Shown here one piece after another: positions 10,138 to 45,293 of a stretch of DNA of 64,000 nucleotides (position 1 is its first letter; each line of letters begins with the position of its first letter). The DNA is from a virus (Duplodnaviria > Heunggongvirae > Uroviricota > Caudoviricetes), in the IMG/VR virus record IMGVR_UViG_3300021387_000091, positions 69,979 to 133,978 of that record; one strand, given 5' to 3'. Under the pieces are notes generated by a model that worked only from the letters and a program-made list of their open reading frames with translations, did no database searches and had not been told where the DNA came from. Both the position numbers and the translations under genes were made by a program.

Positions 10138-10209
10138 ATAAAATACAAGTTTAAATTAATCAAATCTCTAAAAATTGTGATTCTATAGAATCAACATCTA
10201 AATTATTAG

Positions 10210-10302
10210 CAGGGGCTGCAGGACTCGAACCCACATATCCGGTTTTGGAGACCGGCGTTGGCGGTTTTGAAGACCGCTGTGTTACCATTACACCAAACCC
10301 CT
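10210..10302 (-). tRNA. suppressor tRNA, anticodon UCA (reads UGA); tRNA-Trp-derived with tandem duplicated anticodon arm
   Basis: 93 nt: AGGGGTT TG GTGT AATGGTA ACAC A GCGGT-CTTCAAA-ACCGC CAACG CCGGT-CTCCAAA-ACCGG ATAT GTGGG-TTCGAGT-CCTGC AGCCCCT G; second hairpin equals E. coli tRNA-Trp anticodon arm (CCA). Confidence 0.8.
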
Positions 10303-22078: not shown

Positions 22079-22239
22079 TTTGAGGCTCCTCCGGATCCCG
22101 AGACCGGTACTAGGGGTTACAAATCCCTTATTTTACCTGTTAAACTAAAGAGCCGTTAATGATACTTATTTAAACATATAAAGCCATTAATTTTTTTTGT
22201 TTTATAAAGTATTATAAGTATCATAAAATATTATAAAAG

Positions 22240-43904: not shown

Positions 43905-43990
43905 TAGCGGATGTCGGAGTCGAACCGACACAGCCTATGCAGGCCATCAGAGCTTAAATCTGACGTGTCTACCAATTTCACCAATCCGCC
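43905..43990 (-). tRNA. tRNA-Leu(TAA), class II
   Basis: 86 nt; anticodon arm TCAGA-TTTAAGC-TCTGA, variable arm GGCCTGCATAGGCT, T-arm GTCGG-TTCGACT-CCGAC, A73. Confidence 0.8.
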
Positions 43991-44074
43991 AAAAATCCTA
44001 GCTTTTAAATGGAGCTAGGGAACCAGATTTTATAAAAAATAATCTACCACACATTTATCTTTCGATAAAGTGAG

Positions 44075-44570
44075 GCACTATTTTACCACTATAGCTTTCG
44101 CTACCAGAATAAAACTCTGTTCAATCATTGACATTATCTCTGATGTGTCACAGTTAATTCTGTTTAATTCTGTTTGTGGTCTGGACTGTATCTTAACCAT
44201 ATTGAAATCTCGCGAGTTAGGTTTTAGTTTTCTAAGATTCCTCCAACGCTAACTTTTCGAAGATTCGGAATCTCTCAGTTGTCTTTTCCTATTTCAACTT
44301 AGGTTCCTCCTGTATCTAGTCTCTACACACTGTCTATTCGCTTATTGCAACTGTATACTAATTTAATAGTCAAGTTTTCAAACACTCAAAGATGTTATTG
44401 GGTTGCACGAAATAACATTGGCTCGGTATTGGCATACTCAAGGTTAGTTTCAAACCCATTCTATCATTCAGATAGTATAATTTAGAACTATAGCCTTCAC
44501 CGAATTAGGGAGGTTCTACATCCAAGGTTTTCCTTGGTGCACTCAAATTTTTAAACTTAAGATATGATTT
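44075..44570 (-). other. group I intron-like element homologous to the intron at 24265-24489, not within a recognisable tRNA
   Basis: Shared blocks with 24265-24489 (plus-strand): ctacacactgtct, acattggctcgg.attg.cat, ccgaattagg.g, gttctac, tgt.gtctgga, cttaaccata, actata.ctttcg.tacc; two extra insertions. Confidence 0.45.
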
Positions 44571-44606
44571 ATTCTATTCTTAAATACAATTCTCGTACCA
44601 AAATTA

Positions 44607-45293
44607 CTAAAGTAATTTTTGAAGATCATTAATAAGCAACATTAGTATTGGGAGATGTTCATCTTCACCCCATGTATCATGTGTTTTCAGAACAGAATAA
44701 GATGCTTCTAATGCGTCCATTTGTTCCTTGCTCGGCTTCCAGTGAGGCTGTTTACGGAAGGATTTGAGGAAATCTATCTTAATCTCAATAATTGCGGCGT
44801 GGTCTTTATCTTTGACAAGACTATCCTCATAATCTTTAATGATTGATTCCAACCATTGTTCATCTTCCTCGCTCCACTCTACTGACTGCTCTTTCTGTTT
44901 TCCTGCTAAAAATCCCTCACGAAAACCCTTTGCAAAGGCAAGTTCTATACGATTATCTTCATATCCATCTACTGCGGATGCCCCACTATCATTATAGAAT
45001 TTCCAAGCCTTGTCAAGTGCTTCCTCAAAAGATTCTTGGTCATTATAGATAGGAGTCATCCGATTATACTTTTCTTTGGTTTTCTGCCTTTCTATATAAG
45101 CAAGAGCCTCTTCTTTTGTTGTATGTGAACCTGGAGAAATCACACTTCCATCCTCAAGTGCAAATTTTATGAAGGTTACAATATCATTCCTTATCCTTTC
45201 GTCTTCGCTCTGTTTAGGTTGAATAATAACATTATTTTCTTCAATCCGAGCTTCATATCCTTCTGGAATTTCATATTTGTAGTAAGGTTTCAT
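44607..45293 (-). CDS. hypothetical protein (cassette B; paralog of 35610-36383)
   Basis: ORF track; shared motifs. Confidence 0.5.
   Translation of the reverse strand: MKPYYKYEIPEGYEARIEENNVIIQPKQSEDERIRNDIVTFIKFALEDGSVISPGSHTTKEEALAYIERQKTKEKYNRMTPIYNDQESFEEALDKAWKFYNDSGASAVDGYEDNRIELAFAKGFREGFLAGKQKEQSVEWSEEDEQWLESIIKDYEDSLVKDKDHAAIIEIKIDFLKSFRKQPHWKPSKEQMDALEASYSVLKTHDTWGEDEHLPILMLLINDLQKLL

Follow-up and report, generated by a model that had tools for sequence, protein, structure and literature searches.

The stretch of DNA analysed here, hereafter the window, comprises 64,000 nucleotides (nt) of a virus of the Caudoviricetes (IMG/VR record IMGVR_UViG_3300021387_000091, positions 69,979 to 133,978). 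At about 44563-44046 of its minus strand lies an element of group I type with a full ribozyme core, which is homologous to an intron found in a tRNA gene of the same window and is itself situated outside any tRNA. The original prediction had described such an element at 44570-44075; the span is corrected here to 44563-44046, with a further remnant that extends up to 44604, and both the element and the tRNA intron have to be read on the minus strand. As had been predicted, the element is placed between the stop codon of an open reading frame (ORF) at 44607-45293 and an intact, intron-less tRNA-Leu(UAA) gene at 43990-43904 (ARAGORN; 54.8 bits with the Rfam tRNA model), both likewise on the minus strand. 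The ORF is complete and uninterrupted and encodes a protein of 228 amino acids (aa) of unknown function, with no Pfam domain match. Between the element and the tRNA gene, a terminator-like hairpin with T-run, CCCUAGC-UCCAUUUAAAA-GCUAGG-AUUUUU, was read from the sequence at 44020-43991 of the same strand, where it abuts the start of the tRNA. A simple terminator scan did not call this hairpin, its G-C pairs being too few and its loop too large. The window has a G+C content of 32% and at least 19 tRNA genes, all on the minus strand (ARAGORN, Rfam). Contigs of three independent assemblies, up to 176,743 base pairs (bp) in length, match its sequence at 100% identity, and we therefore attribute it to a large uncultivated phage. 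GenBank phages showed no similarity to the locus beyond tRNA-Leu and no match for the 228-aa ORF.

The relative within the window is a compact group I intron of 225 nt at 24489-24265 (minus strand), which interrupts a tRNA-Gln(UUG) gene at 24522-24227 (minus strand) between nt 34 and 35. The split gene is missed by ARAGORN and by the Rfam tRNA model; conceptual removal of 24489-24265 yields a tRNA-Gln(ttg) in ARAGORN, with a U1-A72 pair. All blocks of identity that had been listed between the two elements are present, and in minus-strand reading each of them is an element of a group I core (P, paired region; J, joining region). GTAGAAC corresponds to J2/3, CCTAATTCGG to P3-J3/4-P4, CCGAGCCAATGT to P4'-P6, AGACAGTGTGTAG to J6/7-P7, TATGGTTAAG to P8'-J8/7, TCCAGAC to the segment following P7' and GGTAxCGAAAGxTATAGT to the P9 GAAA hairpin. 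The 14-mer GACAGTGTGTAGAG occurs in exactly two copies in the window, against 0.15 expected, and pairwise local alignment of the two elements gave a score of 101.6, compared to 27.8 ± 4.9 for shuffled sequences (maximum 51.8, n = 200). In place of the two insertions of about 80 nt that had been proposed, the comparison with the compact tRNA intron revealed four expanded peripheral regions, in P5, P6, P8 and P9. The Rfam covariance model Intron_gpI aligned over its full length to both elements, with 17.1 bits (E 0.051) for the tRNA-Gln intron and 14.3 bits (E 0.68) for the free-standing element, both of which stay below its gathering score of 50. These low scores reflect a known limitation of the model, the seed alignment of which contains, according to a preprint whose author needed cut-offs of about 18-20 bits, no bacterial introns (Williams 2020, doi 10.1101/2020.01.27.920355).

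The 14-mer was found in 97 stretches of IMG/VR, and 43 distinct copies also have the other core blocks. These relatives lie mostly on phage contigs of 80-410 kb, several of them of 360-410 kb, often with several copies on each contig. Most of them split phage tRNA genes, their flanks being tRNA halves. When every plausible combination of 5' and 3' cuts was made and the products were run through ARAGORN, valid tRNAs were restored for most members, namely Leu(UAA), Ser(UGA), Arg(UCU), Lys(UUU), Met/Ile(CAU), Gln(UUG) and Leu(UAG). Among loci L001-L097 (e.g. L015, L002, L004, L052, L057, L076), at least seven anticodon types are represented. An ordinary member of the family has the 5' side tRNA...CTT|AA..ATTTGAGTGC-P2(GAAA)-ATGTAGAACCTCCC TAATTCGG and the 3' end GGTAGYGAAARCTATAGTGGTAxG|exon, and at +4 after P9.0 the terminal guanosine (omega-G) is present in 32 of the 33 ordinary members. 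The norm is a long form in which P5, P6, P8 and P9 are expanded, and the compact tRNA-Gln intron is the exception to it. The free-standing element shares the order of blocks with the family, and BLAST segments of it are 70-99% identical to many members.

The assignment of the core helices is supported by covariation across the family. In 40+ relatives P3 varies as CCTCC/GGAGG, CGCTC/GAGCG, TTCTC/GAGAA, ATTAC/GTAAT and CTCTC/GAGAG, P7 varies as GAGACT/AGTCC, GAGAGT/ACTCC, GAGAGC/GCTCC and GAGAAC/GTTCC, and in P9.0 CCAC/GTGG is replaced by CTAC/GTAG (tRNA-Gln intron, L002, L049 and L063). The stem of the P9 GAAA hairpin varies in the family as TAGC/GCTA, TAGT/ACTA, TAAC/GTTA and CTATG/CATAG. An initial assignment of P7 to TGTAG/CTACA was dropped, since the covariation of CCAC/CTAC with GTGG/GTAG at the 3' end marks P9.0; P7 is therefore G(A)GACU/AGUCC. 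The introns of this family are missed by standard tRNA finders and by the Rfam model. The phage tRNA group I intron family appears to be undescribed, no published account of it having been found.

In the window copy the P3-P8 pseudoknot, P4-P6, P7 with its bulged A and G-binding pair, and J8/7 are all present. All features given in this paragraph are on the minus strand. A P1 hairpin, AUCUU|AAGUU-UAAA-AAUUUGAG, at 44563-44542 was recognised by motif comparison and is contained in the minimum-free-energy fold; its U44559·G44544 wobble stands where a 5' splice site would be, its guide sequence, GAG, lies at 44544-44542, and its motif ..CTT|AA..ATTTGAGTGC is identical to that of the relatives in tRNA genes. 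It is followed at 44539-44519 by a P2 hairpin, CACCAAGG-AAAA-CCUUGGAUG, assigned by comparison with P2 of the family. The loop of this P2 is AAAA (44531-44528); in ordinary members with a recognisable P2 it is GAAA or GGAA, with L072 as the exception. P3 (CCUCC 44513-44509 with GGAGG 44310-44306) is supported by covariation and closes the P3-P8 pseudoknot. J3/4 (UAA) and the 5' strand of P4 (UUCGGU) complete the block 44513-44498, and P4, which matches the family consensus, is formed by 44504-44499 with 44427-44422 (ACCGAG). From block spacing, P5 and its peripheral extension occupy 44497-44428, with a tetraloop-receptor-like motif, GGCUAUAG...GUAUGCC, at the base and a sequence 91-97% identical to the canonical members L017 and L081. 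The 3' strand of P4 and the start of P6 (CCAAUG) at 44427-44416 again follow the family consensus, and the peripheral extension of P6 at 44415-44335 lies within 106 nt that match, at 99% identity, the canonical tRNA intron L029 of another phage contig. J6/7 and the 5' strand of P7 (44334-44318, covarying with the 3' strand) provide one side of the guanosine-binding helix, with G44323, the bulged A44322 and GACU at 44321-44318 facing AGUCC at 44187-44183, the same layout as C(A)GACU...AGUCG in Tetrahymena. P8 with a long extension extends over 44303-44197, with blocks that are kept in nearly all members. Its base, CCUAAG 44303-44298 ... UAUGG 44201-44197, is a candidate 11-nt receptor for a GAAA tetraloop, which we take to be such by analogy with the Azoarcus intron. 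J8/7 (UUAAGAUAC) and the 3' strand of P7 (AGUCC) at 44196-44183 match the Rfam consensus AAGAUAUAGUC. P9.0 (CCAC 44179-44176 with GUGG 44089-44086) is supported by covariation, and the P9 extension at 44171-44090 ends in the conserved GAAA hairpin GGUAGCGAAAGCUAUA (44105-44090). In the omega region, 44089-44082, P9.0 is followed by UAA and then by A44082, where ordinary members have the terminal guanosine. Finally, a hairpin that ordinary members lack at this place, GCCUCAC-UUUAUC-GAAA-GAUAAA-U-GUGUGGU, is found at 44076-44046, with a basal G44076·U44046 wobble, a U·U mismatch and one bulged base. The predicted fold of the element RNA is more stable than that of shuffled sequences (z = -2.83) and recovers P1, P2, the P9 hairpin and the 3' hairpin.

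Upstream of P1, the remnant at 44604-44572 (minus strand) was identified by local alignment to 24482-24443 as a degenerate second module of guide sequence and P2, of the type of the tRNA-Gln intron. It starts right after the stop codon of the ORF, its GAAA loop is cut to AA, and its alignment score of 32 was reached by none of 2000 shuffles (13.3 ± 2.5, maximum 28). The 5' part of the window copy proper is 97% identical to the L017 intron, its P1 region corresponds to an inner portion of the L092 intron and its 3' end is 89% identical to L023. The sequence 5' of the putative P1 splice site contains no recognisable gene exon and is homologous to intronic sequence of L092. The connection to tRNA-Leu(UAA) drawn in the original prediction was apt, in that for parts of the 5' module the nearest relatives are introns in tRNA-Leu(UAA) genes of phages (L017, L092). 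The second locus of the same free-standing type in this position, L131, also lies just upstream of an intact tRNA-Leu(UAA).

No host gene could be assigned to the element. An intron in the 228-aa ORF, spliced after GAT CTT and followed by a continuation of 15 aa, was rejected: the C-terminus of the unspliced frame, ...NDLQKLL*, matches the motif at which 19 full-coverage homologues stop (...DLQKLL*, ...DLKKL*), and the ORF is therefore uninterrupted. A hidden tRNA around the element was rejected as well, as no combination of cuts gave a tRNA in ARAGORN, the 3' flank has no T-arm and no T-arm-like sequence lies between the element and tRNA-Leu. A comparison with empty sites was attempted on L104 and L105, which carry the nearest relatives of the ORF; both have other genes downstream, and homology stops 4 nt past the stop codon. 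Since these loci differ downstream and the other assemblies are identical to the window, relatives do not define the boundaries of an insertion. The element lacks the location in an anticodon loop that is common to most family members. Taken together, it fails three defining features of an intron, the omega-G, the exons and the host gene. The claim that the element is a ribozyme of group I type, a homologue of the tRNA intron located outside any tRNA, is supported, the location by a complete ORF on one side and by the lack of a splice-derived tRNA.

The element belongs to a subclass of at least six loci, situated on different contigs: the window element, L023 (with L134 as duplicate), L050 (with the near-identical L007), L131, L214 and L217. 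The window element, L023 and L050/L007 were obtained from the IMG/VR family, and pattern scans added the metagenome loci L131, L214 and L217 together with L134; the metagenome members are those among the matches listed, and further members probably exist in metagenomes. Three more pattern scans of IMG/VR returned no subclass members beyond L023 and L050/L007, the rest being chance matches, and the GTDB species genomes contained no subclass copy, a pattern scan giving 13 chance matches. Wherever flanks are available, the subclass loci lie outside tRNA genes. The omega position is an A in six of six subclass loci compared to a G in 32 of 33 ordinary members, and the 3' end reads GUGGUAAA(A) instead of the ordinary GUGGUAxG. 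After a further 4-7 nt follows the 3' hairpin, which has the pattern GCCUYAC-6 bp-GAAA-6 bp-(bulge)-URUGGU, to which the window copy conforms. Over the six loci 97.2% of the cells of this hairpin can pair, and compensatory changes are found in seven of its twelve pairs; these values were reached by none of 500 shuffles, and no slid register came close. The GAAA loop, the basal G·U, two C-G pairs and the U·U mismatch never vary, and the bulge is invariant or nearly so. The 3' hairpin is under structural constraint. The core blocks of the element correspond to the family consensus, and no subclass-specific change of the core was found in any member.

The 3' hairpin resembles a part of the ordinary intron. 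The guide and P2 region of ordinary members is built as TTGAGTGCAC-stem-GAAA-stem-GGATGTAGAA, the subclass hairpin as TTGCCT-CAC-stem-GAAA-stem-AGATGTGGTAA, and both have CA/UG closing pairs and a bulged A. From this comparison, the hairpin looks like the module of guide sequence, P2 and J2/3 moved behind the core. In L023, L050 and L131 the element starts at P3 itself, without P1-P2 at the 5' end, and L214 and L217 end at a contig edge on this side. Unlike the first three, the window copy keeps 5' P1-P2. Given three members without it and the AAAA loop of P2 in the window, the 5' P1-P2 is dispensable or decaying in the subclass. In net terms, the subclass has the architecture of an intron circularly permuted at J2/3. 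A terminator-like hairpin with T-run is found 3' of the element in four of the six loci (window, L217, L131, L023). Next downstream, an intact tRNA-Leu(UAA) is found in two of the six (window and L131), ORFs or unrelated sequence in the others. This arrangement points to a function at the 3' end of a transcription unit. In L131, a partial, diverged fragment resembling P4-P6, TTTTCGGTAAAAGCTAAG ... TATGCTAATGCCGAATCAATATTATC, is present about 250 nt upstream of the element, which suggests a second, broken copy.

We consider the element to be best explained as a free-standing, non-splicing and probably still catalytic descendant, cutting once in cis, of the introns in tRNA genes of large phages from gut and rumen, a reading to which we give a probability of somewhat less than one half (about 0.45). 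In introns of the Azoarcus type the P2 loop docks in the P8 receptor. By the same contact, the GAAA loop of the 3' hairpin would dock into the P8 receptor, as the P2 loop would in ordinary members, and would thereby set the hairpin base, in which the G·U is invariant, at the site usually taken by the P1 substrate helix, the continuous helix of the hairpin mimicking the stacked P2-P1 domain. The topology of the strands agrees with this: the guide-like GCCU leads into the 5' strand of P2', as it does in ordinary members, and the UGGU opposite GCCU has the polarity of a 5' exon, ending in the U of the G·U. The P7 pocket, free of an internal omega-G, may bind free guanosine or GTP, which would attack after U44046, the reaction ending with that single self-cut. 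In the window copy a second cut at the old P1, after U44559, is conceivable, even though the loop of P2 is spoiled. The predicted product is a stable structured RNA that would end the upstream message, parted from the terminator hairpin and tRNA-Leu. In its widest form, in which the six loci would constitute a natural family, in rumen and gut phages, of circularly permuted group I ribozymes that has abandoned splicing, uses the 3' hairpin as both substrate helix and P2 and leaves, by a single self-cut with free GTP, a downstream RNA with a 5'-triphosphate guanosine, the proposal is a good deal more speculative and we regard it as doubtful.

Several observations speak against a catalytic element that cuts in cis. 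The window copy is a mosaic, with a degenerate additional P2 remnant and a stretch that is 99% identical to the intron of another phage (L029), and its intact core could therefore reflect recent recombination and not selection. The basal three pairs and the G·U of the 3' hairpin, which would form the substrate, are invariant and thus without support from covariation. The subclass consists of six known loci, two of which lack the 5' end, and the three assemblies of the window phage, being identical, contribute no variation. The score of 14.3 bits with the Rfam group I model is low. Finally, should transcription end at the hairpin that follows 25 nt further on, a cut would take away hardly any RNA and offer no evident benefit.

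The same mosaic would be expected if the element were a decaying relic, that is, if recombination had left a functionless intron torso which is either young or has been repaired by gene conversion from working introns. The identities of 97% to L017, 99% to L029 in P6 and 89% to L023, the degenerate P2 remnant at 44604-44572, the AAAA loop of P2 and the missing omega-G and exons all agree with such an origin, as does the additional partial P4-P6-like fragment upstream in L131. That decay occurs in the family follows from L072, which has an A at omega and a spoiled P2 loop within a tRNA-Leu gene. A relic is, however, difficult to reconcile with two derived features common to six loci in different contexts, with a hairpin that has diverged by compensation in seven of twelve pairs beyond what 500 shuffles could reproduce, and with core blocks at consensus in all six loci. 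Phage genomes, moreover, usually lose some 500 nt of useless DNA fast. On balance, decay appears to us somewhat unlikely, though it is a serious competitor of the preferred reading. The original prediction had proposed a mobile or degenerating ribozyme that had left a tRNA; the direction of this proposal was right, and it is the simple decay that the shared omega-A and the covarying 3' hairpin of the six loci argue against.

Two other explanations retain a function in different ways. A stand-alone RNA gene, acting in trans as a ribozyme on another RNA such as a tRNA-Leu(UAA) transcript or a host RNA, or serving as a non-catalytic protective or regulatory 3' structure, would agree with the terminator-like hairpin 3' of the element, as expected for a discrete RNA gene, with the guanosine pocket left open by the omega A and with the position of two of the six members 50-60 nt upstream of an intact tRNA-Leu(UAA), that of L131 containing a perfect intron target site, ACUU|AAAA. 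In every member, however, the guide-like GCCU forms its pairs in cis, ORFs or unrelated sequence come after the other four members, and no promoter could be assigned to the element in a scan with a sigma-70 model, which may not be that of the host; we regard this possibility as improbable. The element might also still splice, from a non-coding transcript or an unrecognised small gene, with the 5' site after U44559 and a cryptic 3' site after a G further downstream, such as G44078 or G44043. The canonical-looking P1 with its U·G wobble and GAG guide, the complete core and the constant presence of some G a few nt past the omega position in the subclass would permit this. The distance of that G from P9.0 varies, however, from +6 to +10, compared to a strict +4 in ordinary members, the other subclass members with 5' sequence have neither P1 nor P2, the sequence 5' of the putative site is homologous to intronic sequence of L092, and no recognisable exon product results. 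Splicing is therefore in our view very improbable, and the non-splicing, self-cutting descendant of a tRNA intron remains the explanation that we prefer.

To our knowledge, group I ribozymes are known only as introns, with the exception of the eukaryotic lariat-capping ribozyme GIR1, and we know of no other group I-derived ribozyme that does not splice. GIR1 (Didymium, Naegleria) is also nearest to the element in the proposed working principle, a single cut near its own 3' end by which the end of an adjacent RNA is set. GIR1 occurs in eukaryotes, inside a twin-ribozyme intron and 5' of a homing-endonuclease gene; its P2/P2.1/P10 junction is remodelled, and it forms a lariat of 3 nt. The element is not a member of the GIR1 family: the Rfam model of GIR1 gave no match at E <= 10, no GIR1-type branching motif was identified in the element, and context and junctions differ. 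Beyond the weak Intron_gpI match, no Rfam family matched the core. An IStron, in which a group I intron is fused with an insertion sequence, requires an adjacent transposase gene, unlike the element. For the six ORFs flanking the element, Pfam gave no domain and all PHROGs matched are of unknown function, so that neither an endonuclease nor a transposase domain was found in them.

The core is like that of the Azoarcus tRNA-Ile and cyanobacterial tRNA-Leu(UAA) introns, with the P3-P8 pseudoknot, AAUUCGG...CCGAGCCAA in P4/P6 and GUGUAGAGAC in J6/7-P7. Bacterial tRNA introns and the element are further alike in the 11-nt receptors at P8 and P5 and the GAAA loops on P2 and P9, and the closest relatives of the element likewise interrupt anticodon loops, their 5' site being marked by a U·G and their 3' site by a G. 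The element differs from them by its intergenic position, the omega A, the lack of exons and the additional guide/P2 hairpin at its 3' side, and its family is phage-borne, in contrast to the chromosomal bacterial introns. The kinds of bacterial tRNA group I introns listed so far number 21 (Williams 2020, doi 10.1101/2020.01.27.920355). A permuted domain order is shared with engineered permuted intron-exon (PIE) group I constructs and with natural circularly permuted group II introns (Roth et al. 2021, PMC8637638). The exon enclosed by the artificial PIE constructs is turned into a circle, whereas the element has nothing between the core and the relocated module; a full-text literature search found no natural permuted group I intron, only engineered ones. 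The Jug huge gut phages (PMC12880540) resemble the present ones in ecological setting and in many intron copies per genome. Their introns interrupt terL, nrdD and polymerase genes instead of tRNA genes; the main text (PMC12880540) reports introns in protein genes and makes no mention of tRNA.

Whatever the outcome, a large family of phage tRNA introns has been exposed. The cleavage model, if true, would represent a second, independent conversion of the group I fold to a non-splicing ribozyme, and the first in viruses of prokaryotes. Such a conserved free-standing phage form would demonstrate that the fold has been put to another use, be it RNA processing, end protection or another job, and would supply a natural example of a domain permutation otherwise confined to engineered circular-RNA constructs.

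Some members of the intron family show particularities of their own. In L085, an HNH-type endonuclease frame (...LQMLCPNCHSLTDNYRGKNK) located 5' of the intron continues into the guide sequence, and a homing-endonuclease gene appears to be contained in the P1 loop of this tRNA-Leu intron. L030 and L069 share a conserved insert that looks structured, TTGACGAAT..TGAGC..GGTGARAGTCCARCGTAA..ACGCAACCT, about 100 nt upstream of P1, between the expected 5' half of the tRNA and the guide sequence; it might represent another element nested there. The ordinary member L029 and the free-standing L214 have, at the same site of J7/3 between P7 and P3', an insertion of 90-135 nt. L072 lies within a tRNA-Leu(UAA) gene, yet has an A at omega (GTGGTACA|AAAATCC) and the P2 loop GAUAAC, and may be a splicing-defective copy. 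In L001, L067, L074, L077 and L079, AAATTCGG replaces TAATTCGG and J8/7 reads AAGGTA or AAGGGA in place of AAGATA. This joint change of J3/4 and J8/7 may reflect a covarying tertiary contact.

Around the element, a weak match to the Rfam family wcaG was obtained at 43983-44080 (minus strand; 24.2 bits, E 0.036, the gathering score being 42). It covers the 3' hairpin and the terminator-like hairpin, is probably due to chance and was treated as noise. An A/T hairpin of 8 bp, AAAAUUAC-UUUA-GUAAUUUU, extends across the stop codon of the 228-aa ORF (44599-44622, minus strand). The protein encoded by this ORF belongs to a large and very variable phage family (homologues P0002-P0120) with the motifs EIPEGYEA, ESEDERIR, EWSEEDE and HWKPS; some homologues bear the motif set twice, and a paralogous fragment is present in L099. 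Among the tRNA genes of the window, that at 22083-22154 (minus strand) was detected by the Rfam tRNA model at 38.5 bits and is unreported by ARAGORN. The gene at 10209-10302 (minus strand) was called by ARAGORN as tRNA-SeC with the anticodon UCA; it is more likely an opal suppressor, which hints at recoding of TGA.

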